Shown: positions 2,865-49,009 of the stretch, in pieces
Layout of the letters: each line of letters opens with the position of its first letter
Position numbering within the stretch: position 1 is the stretch's first letter
Program-made: the position numbers and the translations under genes
Assembly (NCBI GenBank): GCA_001661245.1
Contig: KV454012.1
Coordinates: 1,972,418-2,036,417 of the forward strand
DNA length: 64,000 nucleotides
Source of the DNA: Pachysolen tannophilus NRRL Y-2460
Taxonomy: Eukaryota
Reading direction: 5' to 3'
Notes under the pieces: model-generated
What the model was told of the DNA's origin: nothing
What the model saw: only the letters and a program-made list of their open reading frames with translations
The model's database searches: none

Positions 2865-4559
2865 CTAAATATTTTCAATTTCATTTTTTCTTCCATCCAA
2901 CCATTTTGACATATATGGACCATCCAACCAGTAACCTAGTTTCCCATAGTAGTTTCTAACACCAACACCACTAATAACACTAATCTTCTCACTTCCATGC
3001 TCCTCTCTTGCAATTCTCTCTGCTTCTTCCATTAACAATGTACCAAAGCCTTGATGTTGAAATTTCCTTGGATCTCTTGAATGTAAAGGTACTACCGAGC
3101 CATAAACGTGCAACTCTCTAACAAGAGATGTTGGTTGGTTTTTGAGTTCTTTTCTATATGTGTGTTTTTTGGACAGTTTTCTTAATCTTAATAAACCAAT
3201 GAGAATATCTTGTTTTGGGTCTTCATATGAAATAAAAGTTTCCCAACCACCATTAGCGTAATAATCACGTCTAATCAATTCCACTTGATCTGGATGAACT
3301 TTATGATGAACTTCTTGAATACCAACCTCACGTGTCCTGACGTCTCTACAAGTGGTACCAAAATCTTTCATTCTAGCTAATGCCAATTCTCTTAAATTAC
3401 CATTTTCAACACCTGATGTAACAAGAGGCATTGGGATATCTCTTTGAACTCTATAAATTCTTGTCCAAGGTGGAACCAAAGCTAATATTCTTGCAACCAA
3501 ATCAATTAAAGCATTAGCGTTATATGATTTATATCTTCCTAATTTCCATAATTCATATAAACCTGTACCTCTAATTACCAATGTAGGATAAAGTTTTAAA
3601 CCATCAGTTCTAAAATCAGGGTTTTCAAAATATTCTTTAAATTGTTCCAAATCTCTTTCCATTCCAACATTTGGTAAATCTGGCATCATATGACTAACTA
3701 CTTTATAACCTGCATCTTTAGCAAGAGCAAATGTTTCACAAACTGCTTTTACAGTATGACCTCTATTAGTATCTCTAGCTACATCTTCATAAACAGATTG
3801 TACACCTATTTCTAAACGAGTACATCCATATTTTAACATATCACTCAACTGAGTTTCTGTACAATAATCTGGTCTTGTTTCTATTGTAATTCCAACACAT
3901 TTTGTTAAAGATTGTTGTGAATATTTAATTGCTTCATCAATATTTTTACCATTATAACCTGTTAAAGCATTATGTAATTGTGAAATAAAATCTTCTCTAT
4001 ATTCAATAGGTAATGACATAAATGTACCTCCCATTATAATATATTCAACTTTATCTATAGAATGACCCAATTGTCTTAATTGATCAATACGACCACGAGC
4101 TTGTTCATATGGATCATAACGTGCTCTAATTGCTCTCATCGATGTAGGTTCATAACCAGTATATGATTGTGTAGAATATTCAAAATCAGAATCAGGTCCA
4201 CCTGGACAATAAACACAAATATTCCCAGTATATGCAATATGTGGACATCTATGTGGTTTACACATAACAGCAACAACTGCAATACCCGATGCTGTTCTCA
4301 CAGGTTTGGCCTTTAATTTTGGAATAAGATACTTCTTATACAGATCTGGAATTGAAGATATAATATCTGTTAACCTTGGTTGTGCTTTTAACTTGTATTT
4401 TTTAGAATATTTTGTAATAAGTCCATTTAAATTTATATCTTTTGAATTTTTTAATGAAGAAACCAAATCTAATGAAATATCACCACAACATTGTAAAAAT
4501 CTCTCTCTTTCAGGAGCCATCTTTGGCTTGGATTTTGGTCCCTTAACAGCAACAGCCAT
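2865..4559 (-). CDS. ELP3: Elongator catalytic subunit Elp3 (radical SAM + GNAT/KAT; tRNA U34 modification)
   Basis: [22 protein letters not shown] radical-SAM motif, RELHVYG and [18 protein letters not shown] acetyl-CoA motif. ATG is at 4559; the ORF track starts at an upstream TTG. Confidence 0.98.
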
Positions 4560-4648
4560 CTTCAATCAAATAAACAAATTTATCTAATTATTATTATTGA
4601 AATTAATTATTATCTCTATTATAAAAACATTAATTACTAAAAAATAAT

Positions 4649-4659
4649 TGAAAAATTTT
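4649..4659. promoter_or_regulatory. RRPE element (TGAAAAATTTT) upstream of ELP3
   Basis: Exact match about 90 nt upstream of the ELP3 ATG. RRPE is typical of ribosome-biogenesis regulon promoters, but an AT-rich motif can occur by chance. Confidence 0.5.
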
Positions 4660-4676
4660 TTCTTTTCTTTTTTTTT

Positions 4677-5102
4677 NNNNNNNNNNNNNNNNNNNNNNNN
4701 NNNNNNNNNNNNNNNNNNNNNNNNNNNNNNNNNNNNNNNNNNNNNNNNNNNNNNNNNNNNNNNNNNNNNNNNNNNNNNNNNNNNNNNNNNNNNNNNNNNN
4801 NNNNNNNNNNNNNNNNNNNNNNNNNNNNNNNNNNNNNNNNNNNNNNNNNNNNNNNNNNNNNNNNNNNNNNNNNNNNNNNNNNNNNNNNNNNNNNNNNNNN
4901 NNNNNNNNNNNNNNNNNNNNNNNNNNNNNNNNNNNNNNNNNNNNNNNNNNNNNNNNNNNNNNNNNNNNNNNNNNNNNNNNNNNNNNNNNNNNNNNNNNNN
5001 NNNNNNNNNNNNNNNNNNNNNNNNNNNNNNNNNNNNNNNNNNNNNNNNNNNNNNNNNNNNNNNNNNNNNNNNNNNNNNNNNNNNNNNNNNNNNNNNNNNN
5101 NN
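4677..5102. other. Assembly gap (N run) flanked by poly(T)
   Basis: Run of n characters. Confidence 1.
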
Positions 5103-5103
5103 A

Positions 5104-5141
<38 letters not shown>

Positions 5142-5577
5142 TCTTTTTCAAAAATTTTCATTTAAAAGAAAAGAAAGAAAAAAAAGAAAAGAAAAAGAAA
5201 TAAATCATCAATAGAGATTGTAAAAAGAGAAGTTTATGTCTGTTAATCTATCTATAGGAGAGAGCTTAAAGATATGGTATTATTCTAGTAGGTTTAATAA
5301 CCTTAATTGTAATTTGGGGTATTATTGTTATAATTACAAGCAAACTAAAGCCTTACAAGCAAATTGTACTTTCTATATACTGATTGGTTATCTTAACCAA
5401 TATTAACTTATTATAAGTGGAAAACTTTTATAAAAGAAAACTATAAGTAGTATTATTCACTCATTGCTTTATAATTTCTTTTCTTTTTCTGAATAAAATA
5501 ACTTAACTAACTGATGATCATAAAAAATTTTGTTTTTGTGTTGTTGAAGTCCTCGGTTTTGTTATTAGTGAAAATTT

Positions 5578-5636
5578 TAAAATGAGCAATTTTTACCATG
5601 TTAACTAAAGTGAATAATAATAATATGCTCATTTTA
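5578..5636. promoter_or_regulatory. Inverted pair of CuRE-like (Mac1) copper-response elements
   Basis: TAAAATGAGCA (5578-5588) and TGCTCATTTTA (5626-5636) form a perfect 11-bp inverted repeat containing the TGCTCA core. It lies about 165-220 nt upstream of a Ctr copper transporter. Confidence 0.7.
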
Positions 5637-5798
5637 CTGAAAATTGATATTTTTCTGAAAAGTTGTATTTTGTATATATATGTGGCCTTTATTCTCTACT
5701 TGATAAGATAGTTGTTAATAATAAGAGTTGAAGAATTTTAATTATCTTTGTGTTATATAGGATTTTAGAAGAAAAGAAAAAGAAAAAGAAAAAGAAAA

Positions 5799-6608
5799 AT
5801 GACAACTTCAGCTTATTTGACCACCATGACAATGGATGGTGAAGTGATGACAATGACCATGTATTCTACCTACACAGATTCGACCTCATCTACTTCAGCG
5901 ACTTCAGCGTCTTCAGGGATGGCAATGTCAATGAGTAGTTCTACATCAAGTACAAGTGCAAGTGCTACTTCTACTTCTACTTCATCAAGTGATAGTTCTA
6001 TGGATATGGATATGGATATGTATTTCACATCAAATTATCTTAATTATCCTGTTATTTTCAAGACAATGGTTGCAACAAATGGTGGGAAAGCTTTTGGTAT
6101 ATTTTTAGCTTTATTTGTATCTGCTTTTTTCTTTAGAGGATTAGCATTTTTAAGTAGTTATTTGGAACAACAAGTTTTCCATAATTTAAATAATGCAGTA
6201 TTTGTTGAAATTGAAGATAATTGTGCTTGTGAAGTTCTGGAAGATGATAAAGATTCAGGTATATCAAGTAATGAAGATGATAAGCAAAATGAAGAAGGAA
6301 TACTGAATAGTCAATCTTTAAATAAAAAACTTCCAACTAAAGATGGTAAAATTTTGAAAAATAAACCTTCAAAATTAAGACAATTTTTCCTTCCAGGTAG
6401 ACAAGAATTATTAAAAGATATTGTTAGATTGTTATTAGCTTTTGTTTCTGCAATGTTTGGGTACGCTTTAATGATTGCTGCTATGAGTTTTATGTTGTTG
6501 TATTTTTTTGCAGTAGTATTAGGTATTGCATTTGGTGAAGTTTTCTTTAATAGATTGGCAATTGTGTTGAATGTTAATAAAAATACTGGGAATAAAGTTA
6601 AAATATAG
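5799..6608 (+). CDS. Ctr-family high-affinity copper transporter
   Basis: Met/Ser/Thr-rich N-terminus (MTTMTM, MAMSMS, MDMDMDM), three hydrophobic segments, MxxxM (MIAAM) and GxxxG (GIAFG) motifs. Confidence 0.92.
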   Translation: MTTSAYLTTMTMDGEVMTMTMYSTYTDSTSSTSATSASSGMAMSMSSSTSSTSASATSTSTSSSDSSMDMDMDMYFTSNYLNYPVIFKTMVATNGGKAFGIFLALFVSAFFFRGLAFLSSYLEQQVFHNLNNAVFVEIEDNCACEVLEDDKDSGISSNEDDKQNEEGILNSQSLNKKLPTKDGKILKNKPSKLRQFFLPGRQELLKDIVRLLLAFVSAMFGYALMIAAMSFMLLYFFAVVLGIAFGEVFFNRLAIVLNVNKNTGNKVKI

Positions 6609-7146
6609 ATAATTGTTATATGATTTTTTATTTTATTCTTTATTCTTTTTTTTTTTTTTGCTCTTTTCCTGATTTTATAGTTACATATGGGGTGTCTTGA
6701 TAATTTTTATCTTTTATTAATAATCTGTTAAAAGTAGATTTATTATTAATTTAATTGTAGTGGTAATAATAATAATATAGAAAAATATGTTCACAACAAA
6801 CTCATAAATTCAAAAATCACTTAAGAAGATAGAACTAATAATAATGATAATGAAAAAGATAAAAAAATAAAAAGATAAAAAATAAAAAAAAAATCAAAAC
6901 GTAAGACCCTGTTCGAAAGAAAGAAAAACTCACTTCAATAAATAAAGTGAAACCACCAGATGGGAAACATTATAATATCATTGAACAATTATATGTCAGT
7001 CGGTTTTAATAAGAAACAATGGAAAAGCAGAAAGAAATAAACAAAAAAAAAAAAAAAAAAAAAAAAAACAAAATGTTTAAAAAAACGCCATTAGTATAAA
7101 TATATATATATATATATACCATTAATTATGATTTTCCAAAATTATT

Positions 7147-8169
7147 TTATTTTTTATCTCCATTATCATCTTCTTCATCAAGTGGAATTGAATCTAAATC
7201 GGTAACCAATCCTTCCAATAAGGTAACAACATTTTTATGATAATTCAATTGGATTTTTGCATAAATTTTTAATAAATTGACTGGTTCAACTGGTGAAATT
7301 AATTTCTTCATAGATTCAACAGCCAACTCAGTAGCGTTAACTAATTCATCTTCAGCAGCATCTAATTTTGATTGTAATGAATCAGGAATTTCAACTTCAT
7401 CAACATTAGTACCTGAAGTGGTTGAATTTTTTTCTTGATAAGATTTTACCTCTGCTCTTACTAAATCAAAATTAATTCTAGAATTTTCAACATGTTTCCT
7501 ATAATTATTAGTTTCAACAAATTGAGTATTTAAAATAGTTTTAATTTTTTTGTTGAATTCGGTTACAACCAATTTATCTTGTTCTAATCTTTCATCACCA
7601 AGTTTAAATTCAATTTCAGAAATTTTAAGTAAACTTTTTGTTAACAGATCTTCATCTTCATCTTTCAATAATAAATCCCTACCCAGAGATAAATTTTTAG
7701 AAAGTTGATGATGGAAAGTCTTTGGAACATAATTTGAACCTGAAGTTGTAGCAGTTAAAACAGCTTCTGCTTCTGCAGTAGTAGTTGCCAGAGATAAATG
7801 TGATAATTTTTCAGTAAAAGTTTTTGAAAAATCTTGAAAATTTTCTTTTAAATTTGGTGGGAAATCATAACTTTCTAAACCATATTGTTCAGTAATTGCT
7901 AAAACTTTATTATAAAATTTTTTCAAATCATCAATTTTTTTCTCTAATTCAATATACTCCTTTGGCAATTCACTAATATCATCAATGTTACCTAATCTCT
8001 CCTGAGCAAGCCTAGCAGTCCTCTTAAATATAGGTGAAAAATTAGTATTCAAATTAGAAGCCTCTTTAGAAACTTGTTGAATACCAGTCTGGAATTGTTG
8101 CGAAGTATTTTGCAATGTTTCCTGTAAAGATTGCTGAAAAGAGGATAAATCCGGGAATTTAAATGACAT
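7147..8169 (-). CDS. GVP36: BAR-domain Golgi vesicle protein Gvp36
   Basis: QERLGNIDDISELPKEYIELE, SYDFP and PKT..LSK match Gvp36-type BAR proteins. Acidic C-terminal tail. Confidence 0.85.
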   Translation of the reverse strand: MSFKFPDLSSFQQSLQETLQNTSQQFQTGIQQVSKEASNLNTNFSPIFKRTARLAQERLGNIDDISELPKEYIELEKKIDDLKKFYNKVLAITEQYGLESYDFPPNLKENFQDFSKTFTEKLSHLSLATTTAEAEAVLTATTSGSNYVPKTFHHQLSKNLSLGRDLLLKDEDEDLLTKSLLKISEIEFKLGDERLEQDKLVVTEFNKKIKTILNTQFVETNNYRKHVENSRINFDLVRAEVKSYQEKNSTTSGTNVDEVEIPDSLQSKLDAAEDELVNATELAVESMKKLISPVEPVNLLKIYAKIQLNYHKNVVTLLEGLVTDLDSIPLDEEDDNGDKK

Positions 8170-8804
8170 TTTTCCTATAAATAAAACTTTCTTACTATTA
8201 TTTCAATTGTTTTAACCTTTTTTTTTTTTTGATTTTTCCCTTACTTTTTATACTTGACTTCGTTTTCACAAAAAAATAAAACAAAAAAAAAAATTAAAAT
8301 TTATTTAATCAATCCTAAACTTGAGTTGAAACAAATGAATATGAAAGAAAAACAAACCAACACGTTATATAATTAATCGTATCAAAACTTTGAACAATTC
8401 AATTTAAATTATAATTATATAAATTATAGATATAAAATTTCAACTGCTGAACTTTAGCTGTTGTCTAAACCCATTTTTCGGTTCGCTCCCAAAAAGGAAA
8501 GTTTCCTAAAACAGTAAACTTCCTATTTGGGTAATTTTGATCTTAACTACAGTTATTTATCAGTTAAAAGTGTGAAAACCAAGACGTAATTATCATTTAG
8601 ATATATATATATAATGTTTTAAGACTAGCATAGACAAAAAAAAAGTTCTTTCGTAAATTTACTAAGACGCTCTAGCTGTGAGCATCGTCAGTATTATGGA
8701 GTAAAAAAAAAAAACAAAAAGCAAAGGTAAAAAAAAGCAAAAGTAAGAGCAAAAATCAAGTATTGTAGATATATGAAAATATTGACAAACCAATATCGGT
8801 ACAA

Positions 8805-11800
8805 TCAAATTCTTTCAAGTGTAACATCATTCTTTTCAGTGTTTCTACCAAGTTTGTTCATGAAGCTTGAGCTATGTGCTTCTTTGAACTTGGCAGCATC
8901 AACAGTGACACCTGTGGATGCCAATGTTGCCTCGTTACCTTTGCTTTCCTGAATGACAGCAGAGGCAATAGCTGCGGCTTCATCCTGGTCATTGGCGCCA
9001 ACAACTTTGATATCAATAAAATCATCATCTGGAGCCTGAGTCTGCTGCTGGGCACCTCTGCCGTGATGGCCAGGCTGGTTACCGTGCTGTGGGGCTTGAG
9101 ATTGGCCATACTGCTCACCACCAGTAGTGTGGTTTAAACCGTGGTTACCATGGTTACCAGCCAATCCTGCACCCGCACCTGCACCTGCAGCTGCTCCGAC
9201 ACCAGCACCAGTGCCAGTACCAGCACTAGTGGCCCCAAGTTTGTCATCTCTCTTGATATGATGGCCAGAAGAATCAAAACCATCATCGGTACGTTTAGAT
9301 GAAGCTGGGACGGTTTGCCTAGTTTCTGGTTCTGGCTGACGTCTCGAAGCAATAGTATGCTGTGGACTGGAATACGCATTATCCTCAGCGTAAAGTGTGC
9401 CTTCTTGACGGGAATTAGCTGCTGGTTTCAGAGAAGACTGTTTAGCACTTCCAGTACCGCTGCTTCCACCACTGCTACCACCATTGCTTGGTGATTTCTT
9501 TTTTCCAAAGCCAAAAATCTCCTTCATCTTTTGTTTAGGTGAAGTGGCACTTCCTTGCGAGCTAGAAGATTTTTGTGGTTTTGCTGATCCGCCATCAAAC
9601 TCAGATCCGCTTGTTACAGAATTACCACCAACGGCACCTGCAGTTGCTCCAGTTGCTGCTCCTACAGCGGCGTCCGACTTGTTTCCAGAAGACTCATAGC
9701 CCTTTTGCAGTTGTTGAGCAGCTCTCGAAGAAGAGCTGACACGTTGATTGTCCTGCAGAGATAAACCATGTTGATTTGAAGCATTACCTTGTCCTTGTAA
9801 AGCGGCGACATTCTTCTCTGGATTAGCAAACTCGCTCTGGCCCTTCTCATAAGCTTTTTGAACTCCAGCTTGATTTCCTTGTTGATTCAGAGTCTCGTAA
9901 CCCAGTGCACCAACACCAGCTGCACCCAACCCAGCTGCAGCTAATTTAGAATTGGTATCACCACCGTGATTATAACCTTGCTCTGATTGAGGATAAGCAT
10001 TGCCTTTAGAATTATCAGAGTATGCGTACTTGTCATTGTGATGATGGTTGGCTCTAGTATTAGGGTATTGTTGTTGTGTATTATTGGATGCAGCTCCTTG
10101 AGTGCCCATAGCTGAATTTGCTGCTGCTGCTGCTGCACCCCCATGATCAACATTTCCCCTTCTACCCGAACCAGATTGACCTGAGCTTACTCCAGCAGAA
10201 GTACCGTGATATCCAGATCCATCGTCATAACCGTATTCAGTCTTACCAGCAACTGGTGGGTCTCTAGTCTGTCTGGTATTCAGTTGTTTAGAATATTGTG
10301 AGTCGAGCAACTTTTGCCTATGAAACTTTTGTGCCTCCAATTTTTTAGCCAATTGCTGTTGCTTCAAAGTATGCTCCTTCTTAGCTGTGTTGTAATCTTT
10401 TTGAGCTTGTCCCAAAGATTCCTTTTTCTGGGAAATACCTTGGTTCAAGTTTTCTTTTTGTAATTGCAAAGAGTCAAGTTCTTTGTTTAAAGAATTAACT
10501 TCAGTTTGTTTCTGTGGAAAACCAGAACTCAGCGTATTAGAGCCAGTGGCAGCAACTGCTGACAGAGCAGCTGCGCTAGACCCAAAATGTCCTTGTCTCT
10601 GTTTAGTGGAATCTACAAACTTTGACTGTTCACCTTTAGAAGACTCTGCAGATTTACCACCCAGTTGTTGCTGAATTCTTTGGATTTCAGCCTCAGTTTG
10701 TCTGATTTCAGCATCGACTCTGGCAATTTCATCACTATATTGGTTATTTAACTTGTTACCTGAAGAAACATGATTTGTATGGCCAGAACCACCTTCGACA
10801 CCATTAGCACTGGCAATAGTGGCAACGCTAGCTGCATTTGGATCTTGTTCAGATTTAATGTTTTGTTCAGTAAAGTCACCAGCTGCATTACCTCCTTGAC
10901 TTGGTATAGTAGAGTTTTTTTCTTTACCAGAACCAATAAATGCTGACCTTAATTGATCAATGATTCCACCTCCGCTCTCTGTATCATCGCCAGATTGATT
11001 CATGTCTGAACCAACGGGTTCTGAGTAATTTGAGTAACCAGCAGAGTCATAATTGGAACCAGCTGTTCTGTTTGCTCCGTATGAACCTGAATTTGTGAAT
11101 TGACTATTTTTTTGAGGGTCGTTATATGCAGAGCCATAACTTTCACCCGGTGCCCTTGCTGATGGATGAGCCTGTGAATTGCTGTGACTAGTGGACTTAC
11201 CAGCATTACCACCAGCAGCAGCACCAGTTAAACCGGCAGCACCAGCAGCACCTACACCTGCAACACCAGCTGACTTTGCACCTTCTGAATTAAATCCAGA
11301 TTTTGCAGCCAGAATTTTTTCATTTGGAGATGAAGAGTTGTTAACATTCTGAACAGTTTTATCAACCGTGTCGTGAACTTGTGGAGAACGTAACTTTTCA
11401 GTCGCATTCTCTTTTGTTGAAGCAAAATGTGACTGGTTATTGGTATTATCAGCTTGCGAAAAGGCTTGTGATTGCTTTGAGCCATATTGGTTAGGTGATG
11501 TTTCCGAAGTTTCCCCAGTAGTTTGACTATTTGAGTGGTTTCCCGTGACAGCATTAATTATTTCACCAACAAGGCCGCCACTAGCAGCACCACCTGCTGT
11601 TTCTGCAGCACCAGATCCTGCACCATATCCTGCACCAGAACCAGTACCAGAGCCAGCTCCGGAACCTGCAACGGAACCAGCTCCATAAGTGGCTCCTTGA
11701 CTTCTGTTAGTGGAATCAGAATAAGGGTAACTTCCTGGAATATTGGAATTCTTCTGTCCCGATCTAACTGTATTGTCGTTATTCACCGAACCTGCTCCTG

Positions 11801-12944
11801 GATTTTGATAATCCTGAAACTTTTGGTTTTGAGCTTTAGGATCTAAAGAGGCAGCAGCAGCAGTAGAATCTTTTGATGAACCAGAAACTTGCTGGTGTTG
11901 GTGATTTTTACTTTTTGGATCCAACGAAGAAGCGACACCTGGGTTTCTTGTAGCATCTGCATCAGCGTTTTGATAAGCTGCATTAGACGAATTTAAATTA
12001 GACCTACCTTGATTGTAATCACTATTCAAATTCGAATTACCAGCGGTACGTTGATCGTTGTAGTCACTACCGCTAAATCTCCCCAGGTTTTCGTCATCAT
12101 AAGCGCTAGTGTTATTAGCCTTTTCCGAGCCGCTGCTTCTGCGGCCTCTCCCAGTAACAGCTCCAATAATACCGCCAATAATACCCGAAGAACCTCTAGA
12201 ACTAGTAGAATCAGTTGTTCCAGAAGTCTTTTGTTTTTGCAAATTGGAATCATTTGCTTGATAAGATGAACCGTAGGTAGCATCATGTTGAGTTTGATCA
12301 ACTGGCTCGTTAGAGGCCTCGTCAAAATTATTAAAGTTTCCTTGTGTTCCAGCACCTGCAGCACCTCCAGTAGTACTAGTACCAGCACTAGTTCCTGCTC
12401 CTTTAGAAAGAGTACTGTGATCTGCAGAAGAAGAATTATCATGTGGAATCGACTGATTTGCACTTGACTTGTGTTCATCCCGAGAATCATCAGATACAGC
12501 CGCATGAGATTTGTGTTTAGCGCCAGAATGCCCAGACATTTTTTGCAATTTTTCAGCTTCTGCAACATCATTTGAATCAATGACAGAGCCAACCATCGAT
12601 GTGTACCTAACATTTGAATTCGAGTTTGGTTCAATGGTGTTACCCTTTGTTGGGTTAGTTGTCTTGACTTTACTGGCATTTTTATATTCCCCAGTTACAT
12701 TCGAATTCGATGGAGTTGCCCCAGAACCTTGTGCTCCAAACATCTTCTTGGCAGTACCAATAATTCCTGTATCATTATTATTACCACCACCAGAATCTGA
12801 AGGGAGGTCCAGAGAACTACCTCCAGTTCTTCCTGAATAGGCCTCAGCGCTTGATTCTCTACTAAAAGAGTGATCACCAAACCTTGCATGCGGATCTCTA
12901 TTGGAAGTAAATGGATTTGGAGAAGCTCTTGGAATATCTACCAT
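8805..12944 (-). CDS. Large G/S/N/Q/A-rich intrinsically disordered protein with a central coiled coil (hydrophilin/stress-protein-like), function unknown
   Basis: 1379-aa open frame, low complexity. Recurrent GIIG/AGLGAAGVGA motifs and coiled-coil-like segments (ARVDAEIRQTEAEIQRIQQQL, LNKELDSLQLQKENL). Confidence 0.8.
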   Translation of the reverse strand: MVDIPRASPNPFTSNRDPHARFGDHSFSRESSAEAYSGRTGGSSLDLPSDSGGGNNNDTGIIGTAKKMFGAQGSGATPSNSNVTGEYKNASKVKTTNPTKGNTIEPNSNSNVRYTSMVGSVIDSNDVAEAEKLQKMSGHSGAKHKSHAAVSDDSRDEHKSSANQSIPHDNSSSADHSTLSKGAGTSAGTSTTGGAAGAGTQGNFNNFDEASNEPVDQTQHDATYGSSYQANDSNLQKQKTSGTTDSTSSRGSSGIIGGIIGAVTGRGRRSSGSEKANNTSAYDDENLGRFSGSDYNDQRTAGNSNLNSDYNQGRSNLNSSNAAYQNADADATRNPGVASSLDPKSKNHQHQQVSGSSKDSTAAAASLDPKAQNQKFQDYQNPGAGSVNNDNTVRSGQKNSNIPGSYPYSDSTNRSQGATYGAGSVAGSGAGSGTGSGAGYGAGSGAAETAGGAASGGLVGEIINAVTGNHSNSQTTGETSETSPNQYGSKQSQAFSQADNTNNQSHFASTKENATEKLRSPQVHDTVDKTVQNVNNSSSPNEKILAAKSGFNSEGAKSAGVAGVGAAGAAGLTGAAAGGNAGKSTSHSNSQAHPSARAPGESYGSAYNDPQKNSQFTNSGSYGANRTAGSNYDSAGYSNYSEPVGSDMNQSGDDTESGGGIIDQLRSAFIGSGKEKNSTIPSQGGNAAGDFTEQNIKSEQDPNAASVATIASANGVEGGSGHTNHVSSGNKLNNQYSDEIARVDAEIRQTEAEIQRIQQQLGGKSAESSKGEQSKFVDSTKQRQGHFGSSAAALSAVAATGSNTLSSGFPQKQTEVNSLNKELDSLQLQKENLNQGISQKKESLGQAQKDYNTAKKEHTLKQQQLAKKLEAQKFHRQKLLDSQYSKQLNTRQTRDPPVAGKTEYGYDDGSGYHGTSAGVSSGQSGSGRRGNVDHGGAAAAAANSAMGTQGAASNNTQQQYPNTRANHHHNDKYAYSDNSKGNAYPQSEQGYNHGGDTNSKLAAAGLGAAGVGALGYETLNQQGNQAGVQKAYEKGQSEFANPEKNVAALQGQGNASNQHGLSLQDNQRVSSSSRAAQQLQKGYESSGNKSDAAVGAATGATAGAVGGNSVTSGSEFDGGSAKPQKSSSSQGSATSPKQKMKEIFGFGKKKSPSNGGSSGGSSGTGSAKQSSLKPAANSRQEGTLYAEDNAYSSPQHTIASRRQPEPETRQTVPASSKRTDDGFDSSGHHIKRDDKLGATSAGTGTGAGVGAAAGAGAGAGLAGNHGNHGLNHTTGGEQYGQSQAPQHGNQPGHHGRGAQQQTQAPDDDFIDIKVVGANDQDEAAAIASAVIQESKGNEATLASTGVTVDAAKFKEAHSSSFMNKLGRNTEKNDVTLERI

Positions 12945-13521
12945 TTCTAATTAAAGTCTTTGATAAACCCCTATTATCATATAAAACTTTAAGAAAAAAA
13001 AAAAAATCAAATCAAACAACAATTGAATTTTTTTGTTTAGAAAAATGAATTGAAGATGGTTAATTTGAAGTTTATGATTACAAGAGTTGATCAAAGTAGG
13101 AATAAAAGAGGGAATTATATAGTTAATCATTTTCTACGACTTCTTAAAAATAATATGGCATTTAAAGATTGCTATTAATTTTTCAAAAAGGAGATGATCA
13201 AGGTCACTTGAAAGCAACATTAAAAAATATATTTACTATATATTCCATACTGCAATTACCTAAAGATAACTATTGCTTCATCTTATATACTTTTGAGTTA
13301 ACTCTATTTACAGGTTTAAACACTTGCTGTGTATGAATTGGTGCACACTTTTGATACGCAAAGATGTCCGCCAAAGGTTTAAGCGTCGGCGTACTAACAA
13401 ACACGGTAAAGTTTGCTTTTAAAGTGAAAAGTTGATAAAAATTATATTGTGTGATTCAATCAATAATTATAGATATATGGAATTTATATGACTTATAGGA
13501 GGTTTTAAAGAAATTGATGTT

Positions 13522-13899
13522 ATGTCAGCAGATAAATGGTCAGCTTTGTTAAATGATGATTGGAATAAACCCGTGAAATCCGATAATGGTATTGGAGATG
13601 AAACTCCAGAGATAATTTTCAAAGATGGGAACGATGCCATGAGTTCTTTTTATAAAAATATATCGAATTCTTCCAAGCCAAAAATGAAAATATTGAAAAG
13701 AACAGATATAAATAATACCAAGAATGTAACACGAGATGAGGAGAGTGGTTCTGGTAGTAGTGCTGATGGTAAAGATGTTGATAATAAGAGTGTTACGCCT
13801 GATGTAGAGAGATTAGATAAGATTAAGCTGTACAATGAACTGAGAAAGAAGATTTTTAATGATGATGATAATAATAATAATAATAACAATACAAAATAG
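13522..13899 (+). CDS. Small SUZ-domain (putative RNA-binding) protein
   Basis: KMKILKR followed by ERLDKIK[A]YNE[A]RKKIFN. With CTG=Ala this fits the SUZ pattern ILKR...ER..Y..AR.RIF. Confidence 0.7.
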   Translation: MSADKWSALLNDDWNKPVKSDNGIGDETPEIIFKDGNDAMSSFYKNISNSSKPKMKILKRTDINNTKNVTRDEESGSGSSADGKDVDNKSVTPDVERLDKIKLYNELRKKIFNDDDNNNNNNNTK

Positions 13900-14481
13900 A
13901 TAAGATTGTATAGTTTATACATAGACTATTATCAATAATTACGTTATGGAAATTAAAGGATAGAAATGAATTTAAATTTTTTAAATTTTATTTTTATTTT
14001 TCTAACTTTAAAGTAAATCAATAGAAAGTGGTTACTTTCTCCTTATTGAGATCAGATTAAATCCATAGCTGGTCTAGAATTATGTTAAAAAAATGATTGA
14101 TGTCTTCTTCTTTTTTAAAAGAAAAAAGATAGTTATTATTTATTATCTTTGAGTCAATCTAACCGATTAAAATTAATAAAGATAAAGTAGACAATCAATT
14201 TTTTTTGTGAAAACATTGAACTCTAGTTCACAAATTGCTTCTCCACTTAATGAGATATTGTTCGTAATATCTTTTTTTAAGAACAGTTTTTAAGTGTAAT
14301 TAATTAATTAGTTATTGTTGTATTAGCAAGTTTTTAAGTAATCTAGTTTCATTTCAATTTTTTTTTTTTTTTTTTCTTTTTTATCTTTTTGTTTTGTATT
14401 TTATATAATGTTTCTCTATTTTTTGAAAATAAATCAATCTATTTGACTAAAGATATTTTTTTTATTGTATAAATTGTAATT

Positions 14482-15498
14482 ATGTCTTCAAAGTCTAAAG
14501 TTTTATTAATTGGAAGTGGTGGAGTTGGAACAATAGCCTCATATGTTTTAGAATCTAATGGGAAGGCAGAAGTTACGTCAGTTATTAGATCAGATTATCA
14601 ATTAGTTTTAGATTCGGGCTATCAGATTAAATCTATTGATTATGGTGAGATTAATAATTTTAGGCCTTCACATATAGTTAATAATGTATTGGATAGTATA
14701 AAATATGGACCATTTGATTATGTTGTTGTTACTACTAAAAATCAACCAGATATTTTTTCAATTGAAGAATTAATTGCACCTGTAATTATTAAAGAAAAGA
14801 CAACCATAGTATTGATTCAAAATGGTTTTGGTATTGAAAAAACTATTATTGAAAAATTTCCTGGTACTATTGTATTAAGTGGAGTTCAAATGATTAGTTC
14901 TACATTATATGATGGTATTATTGATCAACCAGGACCTGATTCAATGTCAATTGGAATTTTTAATAATAATATTTCAACAAAAAATGATCAATATTTAATT
15001 GCTCAAAATTTTATATCTTTATATTCAAATGAAAAAAATAATTGTTATTATGATGAAAATGTTAAATATACAAGATGGAGGAAATTAGTTTATAATGCTA
15101 CATTAAATTCAACATGTGCTTTAACTGATTTAGATGTTGGTCGTGTTGAATTATTTGGTGGAGTAGATACTTTGATTAAACCAGCAATGAAAGAAGTATT
15201 AGCTATTGCAAAATCAGATGGAGTAGAATTACCTGAATCAATCATGGAATTTATGATAAGATCAGATGATGGTGTTTGGTATTCACCTTCAATGTTAGTA
15301 GATTTAAGAAAGGGAAATTTTATAGAATCTGTAGTTATATTAGGAAACGCATTAGATGTTGCCAAGGAAAATGGTATTAGTGCCCCTACATTAACTGTAT
15401 TATACAATTTATTACAATTAATTCAAGCAAGAACAAAAGAAAGAAAAGGTTTAATCAAGTTACCAATCCAAAGACCAATTTCCAATACAACAAATTAA
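14482..15498 (+). CDS. 2-dehydropantoate 2-reductase (ApbA/PanE; Pan5-like family)
   Basis: GSGGVG Rossmann motif, IVLIQNGFG, WRKLVYN with the catalytic Lys, and SMLVD..G..IE. Confidence 0.9.
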   Translation: MSSKSKVLLIGSGGVGTIASYVLESNGKAEVTSVIRSDYQLVLDSGYQIKSIDYGEINNFRPSHIVNNVLDSIKYGPFDYVVVTTKNQPDIFSIEELIAPVIIKEKTTIVLIQNGFGIEKTIIEKFPGTIVLSGVQMISSTLYDGIIDQPGPDSMSIGIFNNNISTKNDQYLIAQNFISLYSNEKNNCYYDENVKYTRWRKLVYNATLNSTCALTDLDVGRVELFGGVDTLIKPAMKEVLAIAKSDGVELPESIMEFMIRSDDGVWYSPSMLVDLRKGNFIESVVILGNALDVAKENGISAPTLTVLYNLLQLIQARTKERKGLIKLPIQRPISNTTN

Positions 15499-15685
15499 AA
15501 ACAACAAATTCTAATACTACTAATACTATTATCTAGTTTAATTATTATTACTAGGATTGATTGGATCGATTAATTCCGTACATAAAATATGTATCAAGAA
15601 ATTTCGCGAGCATAGGTAATTATAATTACGAGCCGATTTTATTTTTCACTATAAAACCGTTTGGCTTTTCTTTTATTTTTATATT

Positions 15686-15720
15686 GATAGATAGATAGAT
15701 AGATAGATACAGATAGATAG
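15686..15720. repeat. (GATA)n microsatellite
   Basis: gatagatagatagatagatagatacagatagatag. Confidence 0.9.
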
Positions 15721-16843
15721 GTAGATATAGATACCATTATGATACGGAAAAAAAGAAAAATTAGTATTGCGAAATCAGTTTGTTTACGGATATAGTAGAA
15801 GAAGAAAATAAATTTATACCCTTGTAAGAAAGAGAATCTTTTAACCTGCATGCGATTTTTCATTTTCGTTAAGGAAAAATCAGAATGAACGAAAAAAAAA
15901 ACACAAGAAAATACATGTCATGTAATGGTTGAAGATAGATAAATAGATAGAGGTAGATAGTGAGTATAATGCACAATTTATATTTCTTTTTATTTTATAA
16001 ATAAATAAAAAAGAAACCCAAAAAAAAAAAAAAAAAAGGGGGGATCTTATTTCATAGCGGTGCTGTGGATTAAAGATTATTAAGTCTTTTTTTTTTTTTT
16101 TTTTTGGCCATTTTGGCCATTTTAGCCATTTTAGACTTTTTATATTTTATCAAACATCTTCCGACGCCCTATCGGTTGGCATTTTTTTTTTTTTTCAGAA
16201 TGGATCAAATCAGTGTTGCCTAAAAGAGCCATAAATGCCTTTTTCTTTTTTAGTTTTTATCTTTTAGTTTTTCTGCCCCTGATGTTTGATTTTCTAAACG
16301 TTGTAATTTTTCAATTTCAGAACACGGTTTACGGTTTAATATTATTTATGATTTAATTCCTCATAAATTTACGCAAGTAAGATTTCGTTAATTACGGGAA
16401 TTAAATGGATGATGAATACATACATACATTACATGATTAGGGCCGAATTTAAAAAGATGAGATGGTGTTACAACAACAATAATTTTTTTTTTTTTTTTTT
16501 CACCTTGAGTAGAACGAGATACCATATATAATCTATCAAATACAAATATGAGTATTTTATTTTCTTGATTCTTAAATATTCATAAATTAATTTAAGTATT
16601 CGTCCATATAAGCAAGAGTTTTTTTTATTTTTTAAGGCGTCTTTTCTTTCTCTTTCTCTTTCTCTTTCTCTTTCTCTTTTCTCCGCCATTAAAAGGAAAG
16701 TTCTGAAATGGTCACAGTGCTTCATAACGTTTTTTTTTCTTTTTTTTTTTCAATTTTTGTTTTTTTCGAGCATGGACATTTTTTCACGGCTTCTCATTCG
16801 ATAGATTTTTCTTTTTAGGAACGAACGTCGCATTGCGTGCGAT

Positions 16844-16852
16844 GCTCATCTC
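16844..16852. promoter_or_regulatory. PAC-like motif (GCTCATCTC / GAGATGAGC)
   Basis: Matches the PAC core GATGAG in the long intergenic region upstream of the DOT6/TOD6-like gene. Confidence 0.4.
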
Positions 16853-18150
16853 CAGATAACAACAAAATTGAAGAGAAAATGTGTAATTATACAAATAAAA
16901 AACTTTTTTTTTAATACTATTATTATTAACAAATATTAGAAAACTTATATATATATATACTTTTCTCCTTTTTCTCATATATCATTATTAGCTAATAAAT
17001 CATATCACATAATAAATGGAAAAATATTCATTAAAAGAAGCGAATAGTTAATGATGGTACTTAATATCCTTTTCTTTCTTTTCTTACCACGCACGAGTCA
17101 AATTCTAATCGGTGCGTGGGTAAATGGTACGTACGTATTATGCTTTGAAAATTAAGTCCCATTCTTACATTACATTAAACATTACGATATAGATTTTTTC
17201 CCCGTCCAAAGATAAACATTACCGTTTACAGGAGTCAGGGTAACACGCGACTTTTACCTCATTCTCAATTCTAATCAGAATCAGAATCAGAATCAGAATG
17301 AGATTTTTATTTTTAGTTTTTAGTGTTAGTTTTTTTTTCTAACTTGACATCAAATGAGCAAAGAAAAAAAAAAATACTTTATAGATTAAAATAAAGTAAC
17401 TCTTTATAAAAAACTAATTTAAATTTAAAACCAATCTATTTTATTTTGGTCTCCTCTATATAATAATAATAATAAATTTTCTTTTCTTTTTTTTTTTTAT
17501 CTCATCTCTATCAAGGAAAAAAAAAAAGAAGCAAAAAAAAGAAAAAAAAACCTGCCTATGCTGAATCTATTTTTGTCCTTCTTTTTAATTTATTCTGGGG
17601 CAGATTTCCAATTTTTCTGCAATCACATCACTTTTCAGAATCTCTAGATTTCTTCGAAGAATACGACTAAAATAAGTAAAAAAAACTAAGCGTTGAGATT
17701 TGGGAATATTTATAATAGACTTGATGATCATTGATTGATGAGACTGATACTTTTTTTTTTTCTTAATTTTTATTATTTTTATAATCTCTTTATTCCTTTT
17801 CCAAAATTAAATCTTTGAACTTTTGTCAAATCTTTTAATTTTGTTTTTGTATTTTTTTTTTTAAAATTCTTTGTATTCGTTCATTCGAAATTTGTGTTTT
17901 TTTTTTCTTTTTCACTTTATATTTTCATTCATAATATCGAATAATTAGGCCAAAAACCCCGTTTTAAAAAAACCAAAAAAAAAAATTCATTATTTATCAA
18001 TATTTCATCACTCATTAAGTTCTAAATATTTCTTGTTAGTTTGCTCTTTTATACCGCTGATATTTGAATAATTTTTTTTTTTTTTTTTTACTCTTTCTTA
18101 TTTTCCCACTCACCTTTTAATATTTGTGCCCTCCCCCGAAAAAATTCAAT

Positions 18151-20103
18151 ATGACTGATTCTACAATCGATCTTAAACTTACAAGACCATTTTCAAGAGC
18201 TCCATCTTCATGGGATCCAAAAGATGATTTGTTGCTTAGACATTTAAAAGAAGAACAAAAACTTGGTTGGAAAGAAATTGCTTCACATTTTACTCATAGA
18301 ACTCCAAATGCTTGTCAATTTAGATGGAGAAGATTAAGATCTGGATCTTTGAAAATGTCAGCTGTTGGTGCGGTATCAAACCCGTCATCTCCCATACATC
18401 TTGATTCAAATAATACAAAACAATTACTGAAATCTTCTAGACGTCAATCATCATCATTGTCAGCCACAGGTGGAAACAATAGCTTAACCGATATAAATTC
18501 TAATACTTCTACTAGTAATAATCAGTCGCCTAGGCAACGAAGTACTAGTTTTTTGTTATCATCATCGTCATCATCAGCTGCAGCAACAGCAGCAGCAACG
18601 GAGGCAGCAGCGGCTTTGGCTGGAAACATTAACGGTAATGGTAATGGAAATGTCAATGGAAATGGGAATATGGGGAATGGGAACTCTTCATCGGGTTTAA
18701 GCTCAAGTTCAAGTTCAAGCGCAAGTTCTGGTGCTAGTACATTGGCAAATGTGAATACGAATAATGGACGACAAACTCCACATCAACAACAACTGCTGTT
18801 TCTTCATCCACAACCTGTTCATTTGATAAATAATAGGCAGAGATCTTTGTCAACAAATACCAGTAACGTTAGTTCAACTAATAGTTCACCTCCTCAGTTA
18901 CTGTCACTGCCCGTTTATAACAATTACTGGTCGTTTAATAATAATGCTAATAATCCTTCGAAATTAAGTAGTTCCATGACTAGTGAAGATCCTTTATCTT
19001 CTGTTCCGGACACTTTACCTTCGTTATTAAGGCAAAATCAAGTTAGTAATAAATTCCAATTTGAATTTGAACCATCTCATGGAAATTATGAAGTATCACA
19101 CCGTATTATTCCTTGGCATAAAGAAGAAGATGATTTATTGATGAATAGGAAGGAAAGGAAGTTGAGCTTCACAGAACTTTCCATCTTGTTACCAACAAGA
19201 TCAGAAAGTGATATTTGGTCAAGAATAAATTTTTTGGAGAATAATAATAATAACAATAATAATGGTAATAATGGTAATACACCAAGTACCACTACTAGTA
19301 CTAAGAATGGAAATGATGATGATGAAAGCAATAGAGGAGAGGAACCAGATTCACCTCCAAGTTCTAATAGAAGTTCCCATTTTTCATCTTTCTCTTCAAG
19401 CTTTACAAGAACTGCAGCAACAACTACTAGTAGCAGTTTTTATAACGATAGTATCAAGGGAAATGGTAACGGTAATCCACAAGGTTCAATCTCTTCATCG
19501 TTTCCAGGAAATATGAGTATTTCTCATTTACCTCAACTTTCAAGATCGTTATCAATTTCTTCTTCAATTTCTAATAATTCTTCATACACTCAGCCACCAC
19601 TGTTTTTAACTTCCCGTCAACGTGAAAATTCTTTTAACGTTAGTAAAGAAAGTTCCTCTAATAATTTAATTGCAAATGCACAAAGAGATGAGTATTTGAA
19701 CAGCACCAATAAAAGATCAATTAGTAATTTGCTAGTTAGTTCAAGTCCTGCAACAGAACAAAAATCACATTCACAATCGCAGTTACAACTTCAGCAGCAT
19801 GGTTCATCATTACCACCGATATCTTCACTTTCTACTTCTGCTGATGATACACAATTAGAAATTGGTCAATCAGCATCTATTTTGCAAAACTATAGCAATG
19901 CAAATTCATCTGATGATAGTCGCCATAGTCAAGAAGTTACTTTCAAGCATACCAGACATGAAAGAGAGAACAAAGATTTACCTTCCAATGGTTTAATAGG
20001 TCACAAGAGTTCACTTTCTAGTGGAGGCGCAGTGAGTAATAGAGATCTGGTGAAAAAATCCATTAAGCTCCCATCGATAGGAAGCATTTTGAATAATTTT
20101 TAA
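18151..20103 (+). CDS. DOT6: Myb/SANT repressor Dot6/Tod6 (PAC-binding factor)
   Basis: SSWDPKDDLLLRHLKEEQKLGWKEIASHFTHRTPNACQFRWRRL (Myb repeat 1) and IPWHKEEDDLL..LSILLPTRS (repeat 2). Several RRxS/RxxS kinase sites. First ATG is at 18151. Confidence 0.9.
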   Translation: MTDSTIDLKLTRPFSRAPSSWDPKDDLLLRHLKEEQKLGWKEIASHFTHRTPNACQFRWRRLRSGSLKMSAVGAVSNPSSPIHLDSNNTKQLLKSSRRQSSSLSATGGNNSLTDINSNTSTSNNQSPRQRSTSFLLSSSSSSAAATAAATEAAAALAGNINGNGNGNVNGNGNMGNGNSSSGLSSSSSSSASSGASTLANVNTNNGRQTPHQQQLLFLHPQPVHLINNRQRSLSTNTSNVSSTNSSPPQLLSLPVYNNYWSFNNNANNPSKLSSSMTSEDPLSSVPDTLPSLLRQNQVSNKFQFEFEPSHGNYEVSHRIIPWHKEEDDLLMNRKERKLSFTELSILLPTRSESDIWSRINFLENNNNNNNNGNNGNTPSTTTSTKNGNDDDESNRGEEPDSPPSSNRSSHFSSFSSSFTRTAATTTSSSFYNDSIKGNGNGNPQGSISSSFPGNMSISHLPQLSRSLSISSSISNNSSYTQPPLFLTSRQRENSFNVSKESSSNNLIANAQRDEYLNSTNKRSISNLLVSSSPATEQKSHSQSQLQLQQHGSSLPPISSLSTSADDTQLEIGQSASILQNYSNANSSDDSRHSQEVTFKHTRHERENKDLPSNGLIGHKSSLSSGGAVSNRDLVKKSIKLPSIGSILNNF

Positions 20104-21228
20104 CTTCCGATAAGGCATGTGGAATTATTATTTTAAAACTTTGACCTATTTAAGCACTCTTTATTGTACGAGTGTAATAGTATACTTATTTTTCTACTAA
20201 GGAATAGAATTTTGAAATTAGTTTACTGTTTAAACAATTCAATTAAAATTCTCATTGTTTTTGCTTTTCATTCTGATTTTCATTGTTAAAATTTTATTAT
20301 AAATTAACTTTTATGTTGATGGTTTTTTTTATTAATGGTTTAATAACACTATTTCGAAGTTAAAAAGGTAAATGGAAAAATACCAAAAAGGAAAACTGGT
20401 TTCAAAAAGTCAGAGAGGTTTGAAGTTTTCTTAAAAAAAAAAAAAAAAAAAAAAACACTTGAATAGATCAAAATGGGATAAAAGTTGATAGGAACATTTT
20501 TTAAAAATAATGGTCATCAAAAGAAACAGTTTGACGAATTCAAAATTTATGCGGAATATGCCCAAAACCAAAACATTATTCATTTTCAATTATAATACAC
20601 CGTTTTTTTATTTTTATATACATATACTGGTTTGATTAAAAATTGAACTTAGATTAGAATCGGCAGTTTTACTGGAGTTAGTTCTTTTGTGGAGTTTTTT
20701 TTTTTTTAACTTTTTATTTTTTCATATTTTATTATCTCTTTGTTTTTATCTATATTTATTATATTTTATATTAATTTTCTATTTTTTTTATTTTTTTATT
20801 TTTGAAGATTTATCTACATAAAATGGTGAATTATTTGTTAAAATTTTGTTATTTGATTTCTTTTATATGAAGATGTTTATTTTGTTAACTCTTACTTTTT
20901 ATTTTCTTATTTGTTTTGTTGTTGTTTTTTTTAAGCTATATCTTCGATTTTTGTTATATATATTTCTTCAATTCTTACATTTTAAATATGGTTTTAATGT
21001 GATACATTTACATTTATTATTTTTTATATATATCTTTAGTAAAATAACATTACTATCAAATACTACAAATCTTTCAACTTCTTCCATTTTAACGATAATA
21101 ATAAATTTTGAAATTACATGCAAATAAGAGTAATTAAATAATAAATTAAAAAAATAGAACAAATATATAAAAATTCATATTTAGTATGCAGTAATAATAT
21201 AAACTCAATGCAGAAATTAAAATTTCCT

Positions 21229-24200
21229 TCATAAACCTTCCTCCATAACATCTCTCAATAATTTAAAATCGTAATAATTTGAAATATTTTCAAAAACTTT
21301 GATCTTTTTCATGATTGTTTTCTTATTTAAAGTTTCAACCCAGTTTCCAGAACAAGAACAGAATTCACTCATACTATCAGATTTGATAACATTGCACTTT
21401 TCACATTTCAAATCCTGCATGAAAAAAGTTGTAATTAATTTTTTGAACTCTAAGATCAGTTTCTCCTCGATGGTGACTTTATTGAACAGGGTCAAACATT
21501 TATCACATTTGAAAATTGAATCTTCATCATCTCTACATAAATCTATGTCTTTTATCGTATTGCAATATTCACATAAAATATAAGGAAGTTTTAAAGATGT
21601 GCTTGGATTGTGAAATATTGATTCTTCGCTAAACTCTCTCACATCGAATAACTTCAATAATTCTTTCCTCAACATTCTAATTTCAATATTTCTTTTTTTT
21701 GATGAAGAAAAAACATGCATTAACGATTTAACCAACTCCAATGTAGGATTTACCAATCTGAGATGAGAGCCAGGAAGTTTTGGAAAAATGTAATCATTGC
21801 TGTTATCTGGATCCAACACAGCTTCGTTCTGGCGGTGAATTAACTGTTGAATCCTTTTGTGCAATGGTTTTCTGAAAACTTCACAGATATCTGTAATCGC
21901 TATATCCTCAGCACCGCCAGACGACGGAGACGAGTCATCAATTTTCTTCCTTTCCTTTAAAAGAAAATTGATCTGCGTAATTCTTGGAGTTCCGGAAGCT
22001 GCGTTTGCCATTGCATTGTCTTTGTTTTTAACTAAAGCGTCCAAAAAAATCAAAACCCAGTCTTCAAATTCCGGTTGTAAGACAATTGGTAAATAATTTT
22101 TAATTTGCCAATGACTGAAGGATTCAAGTTGTTGTGTTTCGGTTGTCCCAATCTCAGTACAACCACGGCCACAGAAATTATATTGATCAACCCACACCAA
22201 TAAATCCCAATATCTTGTTACTTCCAAATCTAGGTAATTAAATAGTGGTTTTGCCCTTACGGCCTTGCAAATATACTGACCATACGCATAAGAATTTTCC
22301 ACGCTTCCCTTTGAGATATTCAATATAATTTTATTTCTATTTGCAAAAACCACTGATGATCCCATTTTTTTGAATTCACCTAACAATTGTAAAAATGCTT
22401 TTTTTGTTAAATTATGGACATGATATTGCAAGGCTGGATCATACAAGTACGAATTTGGTTTTTGAACCCACGAAACAAAATTGTGAACCATCGAATCCGC
22501 ATTTCTGTTATTTTTAATGGCATCGTCCCACCATTCTTTCACCATTGTTCTTAATACAACGAGAGCAGGAGCAGAAAAAGCATCTTCAGCAAAGGTTGAA
22601 ACATCAGTTTCACCAAAGGATAACTCTTGTTCCGCTAAATCTGTACCTTCTGCCTCGTTGATCAAAGCTGAAGCCAACAATGAATTTATTGAAAGATTTC
22701 TTAGATCAAGCTCAAGCGATACAGATTCATAGACTTCTGATCTATTGATATTTGGAAACTCTAAACTTGCTTCCACATTCGGAGCTACGCAGTCTTTCTG
22801 CATCCCTCCAAGGTCTGGTTGTGGATTTGGAGACCACCAAAGAACAATATCAAACTTTTTAAGTCTTCTCGCATATTCAACATCGATAATATAACTTGTA
22901 TCTTGAACATTTAAATTACACAATGGAATATTGCTGTATCTAGATAAAGCCATGAAATGTTTAATCCAACCTGCCAAGGACAAATAATGGTTGAATATTC
23001 GTTTAACAACTAACTGTTGCCATCCAATCGCAGGGACTGTAATCTCATTTACCTTCATCTGAATTGTTGGAAATTCAGCTAATGGTTTCACAATTTTAGC
23101 TACTTTATTGCTATATGGCGATTGTAAAACAAACAACGATTTTGATGATTTCTCATTATGCAATTTAGTGCAAACGTTATTCAATTTTTTGTACAACTTA
23201 CTTATATCATTAAAGTAAGTCTTTTCGAATTCCAAATCGCTATTATAGTCAATAATATTATAATTTTTGGAGACCTGTTCTGCTTTCCTATTGAAGATTT
23301 CCTTATAAAGACTTTCCAATTTGCTTTCGCTAGGCAACTCCTGAGCAACATTCGAAGGTTTCAATACAAAGATGTTGACCACAGAATCCCAAGTTTTAAA
23401 CAATGCAAAAAACTCGTATTGATTTGCAACGATATGTAACAAATAAATAATACCCATGGAAAATTTCTGCAAATATTTCTCTGATTCTATAGGTGCTAGT
23501 GATTTTTGATCAAATCCTTTCTCGATTGCTTTACCTAGTGCACCAATTCTGGATTCTTGAAAACGAACTGAATTTCCTAACTCAATAATAGCCCTCTCGA
23601 CGCTACCAATATGTGATTCATAAATACCTTCAACCGACTCATCGCGGAAAATACTTCCTGGCTTATTGCACTCTTCAGTAAATTTATATTCATTCATAGT
23701 TAATTTAAATAAATTTTTAGAGGTATTACCATTTGGTAATATTGAGGAAACTTTTTCAAAATTGCAGTTCTTTATTAATCTGTTCAAATCTTTCAGTTTC
23801 ATTTCTTCTCTAAAATTTAAATAAACCTTTTTCGGAATATGAAAGGTAAAACTTTGAACCTTCCCATCAATAAGTACGTACGCTTTAATATCTCCCAGTA
23901 CCAGCGTATTTTCTTTAAATTCAAGAATCTCCCAGTTCGAGTTTGCGAAATTTTCAGCTCTTTGTTTGAAAATGTCTCCAATTGTTCCAGCAGAACCAGT
24001 ATTAGGGCCAAATAACTTTTTCCTTGTCTCCTGTTGTTTTGCTATTTGATTCCATTTAGTTTTTTGATATATCAAGAATCCGACATAATCATCCTCTGGC
24101 GAAGGACATGATCTGCTCAAAACAATTGCAGCATCTTTTTTCTCTTGTTCTAATTGTTGCTTAATTTTACGCTTCCGAGATATAACTTTGCTGACTTTTG

Positions 24201-43156: not shown

Positions 43157-43196
43157 GTTTTTTTTTTTTTTTTTTTTTTCGTTTTTTTTTTCATCT

Positions 43197-48976: not shown

Positions 48977-49009
<33 letters not shown>

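Follow-up and report, generated by a model that had tools for sequence, protein, structure and literature searches.

CTG codons of a 64,000-base budding-yeast window very probably read as alanine, as known from Pachysolen tannophilus

The CUG codon, leucine (Leu) in the standard code, is read as alanine (Ala) in the yeast Pachysolen tannophilus. The biology was established in 2016: a tRNA was lost, and CUG was then taken over by a tRNA-Ala with a mutated anticodon. Here, we analyse the in-frame CTG codons in a 64,000-base stretch of contig KV454012.1 (positions 1,972,418 to 2,036,417), hereafter called the window. We hold with high confidence that the window comes from a yeast of the CUG-Ala clade (Alaninales, Pachysolenaceae) that reads CUG as Ala, presumably via a tRNA-Ala with the CAG anticodon, all 102 CTG codons thus being Ala. 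This reading is drawn because the public protein records use genetic code table 26, the lineage position fits, the CTG codons behave unlike Leu codons and SUZ, the only CTG-bearing domain whose column is sharply conserved, wants Ala at its CTG sites.

The reassignment was proven in P. tannophilus in 2016 and an earlier reading of this DNA from its letters alone, the sequence-only reading, rightly took it as established for the clade (PMC4937558). That study found by mass spectrometry that, of 907 CUG positions with full support, 97.2% were read as Ala, and that CUG decoding is unambiguous to the same degree as that of AUG. It also describes the tRNA(CAG) as a tRNA-Ala with mutated anticodon that keeps G3:U70 and A73. 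The clade comprises Pachysolen, Nakazawaea and Peterozyma and is placed as the sister of Pichiaceae in PMC5951914. The group is now named Alaninales/Pachysolenaceae with CUG-Ala as a part of its diagnosis, according to PMC11182611, and the taxonomy bears out these names.

Two other budding-yeast systems come close. In the CUG-Ser1 yeasts (Candida, table 12, Serinales), the same codon is reassigned, to serine (Ser), and conserved Leu columns are similarly poor in CTG. At most sites of the window, alignment alone does not separate the two codes. The window differs in lying outside the Ser1 group, in a SUZ profile that wants Ala and not Ser and in having no table-12 public record. In Ascoidea asiatica of the CUG-Ser2 group, CUG is likewise reassigned, with reported stochastic Ser/Leu decoding (PMC6041473) and some CUG at Leu-like positions. 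By contrast, the type species of the Ala clade shows unambiguous Ala by proteomics (PMC4937558), while the window offers DNA only.

The window is gene-dense budding-yeast nuclear DNA. Its guanine-cytosine content is 29.6% with 1,348 masked N, as compared with about 30% in P. tannophilus. This content, the table-26 annotation at NCBI and the lack of a named Pachysolen among the POL2 homologues, the self-match aside, make P. tannophilus the likely source, probably as the clade member whose proteins are annotated. There are 24 open reading frames (ORFs) of at least 125 amino acids, and 22 of them are real after removal of two artefacts of N runs (4637-5161 and 42730-43269). CTG makes up 102 of the 14,185 ORF codons (7.2 per 1000) and occurs at least once in 18 of the 22 real ORFs, in line with the 80% of P. 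tannophilus genes carrying CUG (PMC4937558). The window also resembles P. tannophilus in the public proteins of its contig having Ala at the same CTG codons, with nothing found differing, in its lineage as a sister to the CUG-Leu2 Pichiaceae and in keeping CTG from conserved Leu columns.

Five ORFs equal public proteins letter for letter only as table-26 translations. As the sequence-only reading had advised, a CTG-derived L in the ORF tracks of the window is to be taken as A. The POL2 ORF encodes the catalytic subunit of DNA polymerase epsilon as judged by its Pfam domains (21229..27840, minus strand, 2203 amino acids, 7 CTG), and its record P0001 agrees with the standard translation everywhere except at the CTG codons, where it has A in 7/7 cases. 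The SUZ-domain ORF (13522..13899, plus strand, 125 amino acids, 2 CTG, Pfam SUZ) has the record P0245, identical with its table-26 translation.

The other three matches came from exact look-ups in NCBI and UniRef, which found the table-26 readings of 3/8 ORFs, all from the same 2,193,613-bp contig. One is the ELP3 ORF (2865..4559, minus strand, 564 amino acids, CTG at codons 73 and 462), assigned by Pfam ELP3_N, Radical_SAM and Radical_SAM_C and by a match of 1150 bits with Elp3 of S. cerevisiae (6qk7_C). Another is the GDA1/CD39-family ORF (45987..48179, plus strand, 5 CTG), and the third is the BAR_2 ORF (Gvp36-like; 7147..8169, minus strand, 3 CTG), assigned by Pfam BAR_2. The same look-ups found 0/8 of the standard-code (table 1) readings and 0/3 of the table-12 readings. 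The CUG-Ala reading is thus no novelty, and the contig has been publicly annotated with it.

The lineage was examined with a maximum-likelihood tree of POL2 from 31 of 120 rows (26 named species, 4 further rows and the window), leaving out 89 rows that were redundant or had no species name. Its group labels were taken in part from PMC5951914 and PMC11182611, and the tree had neither a named Alaninales reference nor a named Ser2 species. The window grouped with the row P0002 at a support of 100 in the Shimodaira-Hasegawa-like approximate likelihood ratio test (SH-aLRT). This pair was sister (99) to all 11 CUG-Leu2 Pichiaceae (98), which is the published place of the Ala clade. Ten CUG-Ser1 species stood apart (97) with the window not among them, and so did 5 Leu1 species (95).

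The phylogeny thus bears out the claim that the window is distinct from the Candida CUG-Ser clade, and its membership in the table-26 clade is a point on which three independent lines, the public records, the POL2 tree and the sequence evidence, agree. P0002 is the nearest other Pol2 found, 70% identical to the POL2 of the window, and known only through public runs that were assembled. It probably belongs to the clade of the window as well.

The residues opposite CTG were tabulated in the homologue alignments of POL2 (119 homologues), the SAS3-like MYST acetyltransferase (120) and the GDA1-family protein (149). The SAS3 ORF (28424..31495, minus strand) has 15 CTG, most of them in unalignable low-complexity parts. 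The three ORFs have 27 CTG codons. For 14 of them, half or more of the weighted rows have a residue in the column; the remaining 13 fall in unalignable, mostly low-complexity stretches. By an empirical substitution log-likelihood, the 14 sites rate Ser at 0, Ala at −0.05, threonine (Thr) at −0.99 and Leu at −7.49 nats.

Leu thus trails the best-scoring amino acid by about 7.5 nats. In a comparison with ordinary sites matched by column entropy, not one of 1000 true-Leu sets had a Leu signal as low as that of the CTG sites. Columns of at least 50% Leu hold only 1/14 CTG codons versus 199/319 of the other Leu codons (Fisher p = 4e-5). In the 170 columns of at least 80% Leu in the three proteins, the window has TTG 71, TTA 67, CTT 8, CTA 7, CTC 2 and CTG 1 times. 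The sequence-only reading had stated that the conserved Leu positions it inspected in ELP3 and POL2 do not use CTG, and apart from POL2 codon 2128 this is confirmed.

Profile scores point in the same direction. In a test akin to Codetta, each ORF was compared with Pfam under tables 1 (Leu), 26 (Ala) and 12 (Ser), with 11 families having CTG sites. Leu scores lowest in 10 of the 11 families. The bits for Leu, Ala and Ser are 89.4, 91.1 and 91.7 in ELP3_N, 101.2, 102.8 and 103.2 in Ctr, 225.3, 229.0 and 229.7 in BAR_2, 253.7, 254.9 and 255.0 in MOZ_SAS, 257.5, 259.2 and 259.0 in GDA1_CD39, 68.9, 69.3 and 69.1 in NT-C2, 82.7, 85.6 and 85.4 in ERAP1_C, 87.5, 89.1 and 89.8 in DnaJ, and 46.0, 46.3 and 46.5 in DnaJ_CXXCXGXG. 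Summed over the 11 families, Ala exceeds Leu by 24.3, Ser exceeds Leu by 16.5 and Ala exceeds Ser by 7.8 bits.

In BAR_2 and Ctr, X, Thr, glutamine (Gln) and lysine (Lys) at the CTG sites score about the same as Ala and Ser (X gives 228.9 in BAR_2), and Leu alone is penalised. As far as the window's own letters can tell, the reading of CTG as something other than Leu is well supported.

The SUZ family is where Ala stands out. The two CTG codons of this ORF, codon 103 (13828..13830, plus strand) and codon 107 (13840..13842, plus strand), lie in the context IK-CTG-YNE-CTG-RKKIF. SUZ scores 35.6 bits with Ala, against Leu 25.4, Ser 27.0, Thr 28.1, Gln 26.3, Lys 26.1 and X 27.0. On these scores, the profile specifically wants Ala at the CTG sites. 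The claim of the sequence-only reading that the SUZ consensus has Ala is upheld to this extent, by scores ranging from 25.4 to 28.1 bits for all the others. A homologue search with the ORF yielded nothing besides the record of the window itself and so gave no SUZ alignment, and no real match was found in PDB.

The individual sites that had been cited for Ala are all present and in frame, as matched to the ORF list: ELP3 codon 462, POL2 codon 2118 and the two SUZ codons. ELP3 codon 462 (3174..3176, minus strand, context LRLRK-CTG-SKK) faces Ala in S. cerevisiae Elp3, where 6qk7_C reads LLRLRKASKK as was claimed, cysteine in two mammalian chains and proline (Pro) in an archaeal Elp3, and never Leu or Ser. 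The other ELP3 site, codon 73, faces Gln or histidine. POL2 codon 2118 (21487..21489, minus strand, context CLT-CTG-FNK) indeed faces Ala in S. cerevisiae Pol2, where 6hv8_A reads RCHKAFNQV. Its column in 119 yeast homologues is variable, with P 38, A 21, E 15, S 10 and L 7.

Several results weigh against the Ala reading and have to be set beside these. The examples cited earlier were selected, and the in-window sequence evidence is weaker than they implied. The table used in the public annotation was chosen by a depositor and is not a measurement. The M1 peptidase (57479-60337), DnaJ (61491-62993), Ctr (5799-6608, Pfam Ctr), SAS3 and NT-C2 (48412-49878) ORFs gave no record by exact look-up under any code tried. 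The deposited models of these five genes probably differ from the plain ATG-to-stop ORFs in start codon or introns. The window's own SAS3 was also absent among its retrieved homologues.

On the same side are the two sequence tests when Ala is compared with Ser. In the homologue columns, Ser is ahead of Ala by 0.05 nats at 14 sites and by 0.36 nats at 17 sites. In the profile test, Ser leads narrowly in most families, with margins of 0.1-0.8 bits. The whole advantage of Ala over Ser is due to SUZ (+8.6), and the sum over the ten remaining families is −0.8 bits. Within the window, Ala rather than Ser is suggested by one 125-amino-acid SUZ protein and by the matched-null argument given below.

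Some sites and columns are unfavourable as well. The zf-MYST family scores best with Leu (62.9 bits; Ala 61.9, Ser 60.6). POL2 codon 2128 (21457..21459, minus strand) occupies a conserved column that is Leu in 97/119 homologues and also in S. cerevisiae Pol2. It is located ten codons (30 nucleotides) downstream of the cited codon 2118 and was missed by the sequence-only reading. The Leu signal at the CTG sites exceeds that of 1000/1000 entropy-matched true-Ala sets. Columns of at least 50% Ala hold 0/14 CTG versus 62/141 GCN codons (Fisher p = 9e-4).

A neighbour-context classifier, which uses the residues within ±4 of the 102 CTG sites, also speaks against Ala if taken at face value. It called Gln and placed Ala outside the top ten. 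With the 82 sites left by a poly-Q filter that drops those with at least 2 Gln nearby, Lys, asparagine and Gln were called and Ser, Leu and Ala came at −5.2, −7.8 and −30.9 nats, respectively. Its held-out accuracy for Leu is only 56/100, and the first call was Gln because 20/102 CTG sites lie in Gln-rich tracts. The classifier is judged uninformative on decoding and to reflect where CTG codons arise.

The rival that survives best, though very unlikely, is that CUG is Ser as in CUG-Ser1 (Serinales, table 12) or CUG-Ser2 (Ascoideales). The near tie in the homologue columns and the 0.8 bits for Ser in the Pfam sum without SUZ favour it, and on like grounds a 2014 alignment-only study put Pachysolen in the Ser code (PMC4986446). 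Columns of at least 50% Ser hold 0/14 CTG versus 87/258 Ser codons (Fisher p = 6e-3). As the columns of Leu and Ala do likewise, CTG is unlike any ordinary codon, residing at weakly constrained sites and out of conserved Leu, Ala and Ser columns. The 2014 assignment to Ser arose because CTG avoids the conserved columns of every candidate amino acid.

The matched null sets speak against Ser. The log-likelihood difference of Ala minus Ser is −0.05 as observed, +0.83 (standard deviation 1.34) in the matched true-Ala sets and −4.23 (standard deviation 1.25) in the matched true-Ser sets. The observed value is typical of Ala and about 3.3 standard deviations away from Ser. The tabulation proposed by the sequence-only reading rejects Leu, while its homologue columns do not by themselves separate Ala from Ser.

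Moreover, the SUZ score with Ser is no higher than that with X, the table-26 readings are present among the public records where those of table 12 are missing, and the Ser1 group makes up one side of the 97 branch with the window on the Pichiaceae side at 99. The Ser2 clade has its place away from Pichiaceae, and it is by this published position only that Ser2 is excluded.

Another rival, fainter still, is ambiguous decoding with mostly Ala and some Leu. It has a precedent in the stochastic Ser/Leu decoding reported for Ascoidea asiatica (PMC6041473), and it would account for a Leu or hydrophobic signal above all the matched true-Ala sets and for the CTG at the conserved Leu column of POL2. 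The excess was traced to POL2 codon 2128, SAS3 codon 431 and POL2 codon 1197; the column of SAS3 431 has Y 69, L 32 and F 13. In a narrower form, the CUGs in such Leu or hydrophobic columns (POL2 2128, SAS3 431) would mark residual or context-dependent Leu decoding and the Ala reassignment would not be fully unambiguous. We regard this form as highly improbable too.

A DNA window alone cannot show dual decoding, and the mass spectrometry on P. tannophilus, with CUG as unambiguous as AUG, is against it (PMC4937558). The excess of Leu is more simply explained by the origin of CTG at Ala-tolerant sites from TTG or CTN in one step, and ambiguous decoding is then unneeded. POL2 codon 2128 belongs to the C-terminal zinc-finger region, where table 26 makes it a change of Leu to Ala.

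Under the Ala reading, the origin of the codons would be constrained as follows. A single step cannot turn GCN into CTG. CTG codons newly used for Ala would come from one-step neighbours, namely those of Leu (TTG, CTN), Pro (CCG), Gln (CAG), valine, methionine and arginine, and would arise at sites that tolerate Ala. Such an origin would make the columns and contexts of CTG sites rich in Pro, Leu and Gln.

The columns are consistent with this. Residues reachable in one step constitute 0.40 of the homologue residues at CTG columns versus 0.26 at variable Ala columns. Pro is the majority at POL2 codon 1315 (99/119 homologues), and the commonest residue at codons 1349 (53/119) and 2118 (38/119). 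The three CTG sites of the DnaJ ORF face P/R, S/K and I in PDB alignments and are uninformative.

Contexts rich in Gln are also frequent. At least two Gln occur within ±4 residues of 20/102 CTG sites, versus 4.7% for Ala sites, 6.2% for Leu sites and 5.4% for Ser sites. Near CTG, 38% of the Gln codons are CAG versus 22% overall (p = 2e-4). This suggests that many CTG codons may have come from a CAG-to-CTG change, with Ala interrupting poly-Q. Examples of CTG in Gln tracts are 30880-30878 and 30862-30860 in SAS3 and codon 303 of the ORF 48412-49878.

That CUG is standard Leu, the Ala matches being chance picks among variable sites, draws on the Leu column at POL2 2128, the zf-MYST score and the variable column of POL2 2118, and is hardly credible against the 1/14 share of CTG in Leu columns, the likelihood unequalled in any true-Leu set, the worst score in all families other than zf-MYST with the sole penalty relative to X in BAR_2 and Ctr, and the absence of standard-code readings among the eight ORFs looked up.

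One further count concerned P0002. Pairs with Ala here and Leu there were counted as a probe for a standard-code translation of a CUG-Ala species, and no excess was seen, 7 pairs against 2-8 in 28 other rows.

As to the mechanism, we infer from the literature that a tRNA-Ala(CAG) would serve the window's genes and that Ala would actually be incorporated. Within the window, ARAGORN found 0 tRNA genes and Rfam gave 0 matches.

The value of the Ala reading is practical and lies in annotation, and the window adds nothing new to the known biology. With the standard code, 18 of the 22 ORFs would be translated wrongly, at 102 positions in all. Homology scores can suffer as well; the SUZ match drops from 35.6 to 25.4 bits, just over the Pfam cut-off of 25. 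The window also shows how little alignment evidence by itself can say on CTG decoding.

The real ORFs were assigned by Pfam to ELP3, Ctr copper transporter, BAR_2, ketopantoate reductase, Myb, POL2, MYST (SAS3-like) acetyltransferase, RRM, class II aminoacyl-tRNA synthetase, Pex13, GDA1/CD39 phosphatase, NT-C2, EOS1, M1 aminopeptidase, DnaJ and SUZ. Four ORFs are free of CTG: 14482-15498 (ketopantoate reductase), 37652-39154 (class II aminoacyl-tRNA synthetase), 41056-42333 (Pex13) and 52113-53126 (EOS1). They total 1600 codons, for which about 11 CTG are expected from the mean rate of the window. CTG occurs preferentially in long proteins with much low-complexity sequence.

Three N runs are located at 4677-5102, 32628-33160 and 42774-43156, are masked or withheld sequence and are the source of the two false ORFs. 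A low-complexity gene ORF of 1379 amino acids (8805-12944) contains two off-frame ORFs on the minus strand, 11252-11554 and 12026-12679, with CTG at 8/100 and 16/217 codons. These CTG-rich ORFs look like frame artefacts of repetitive sequence and not genes.

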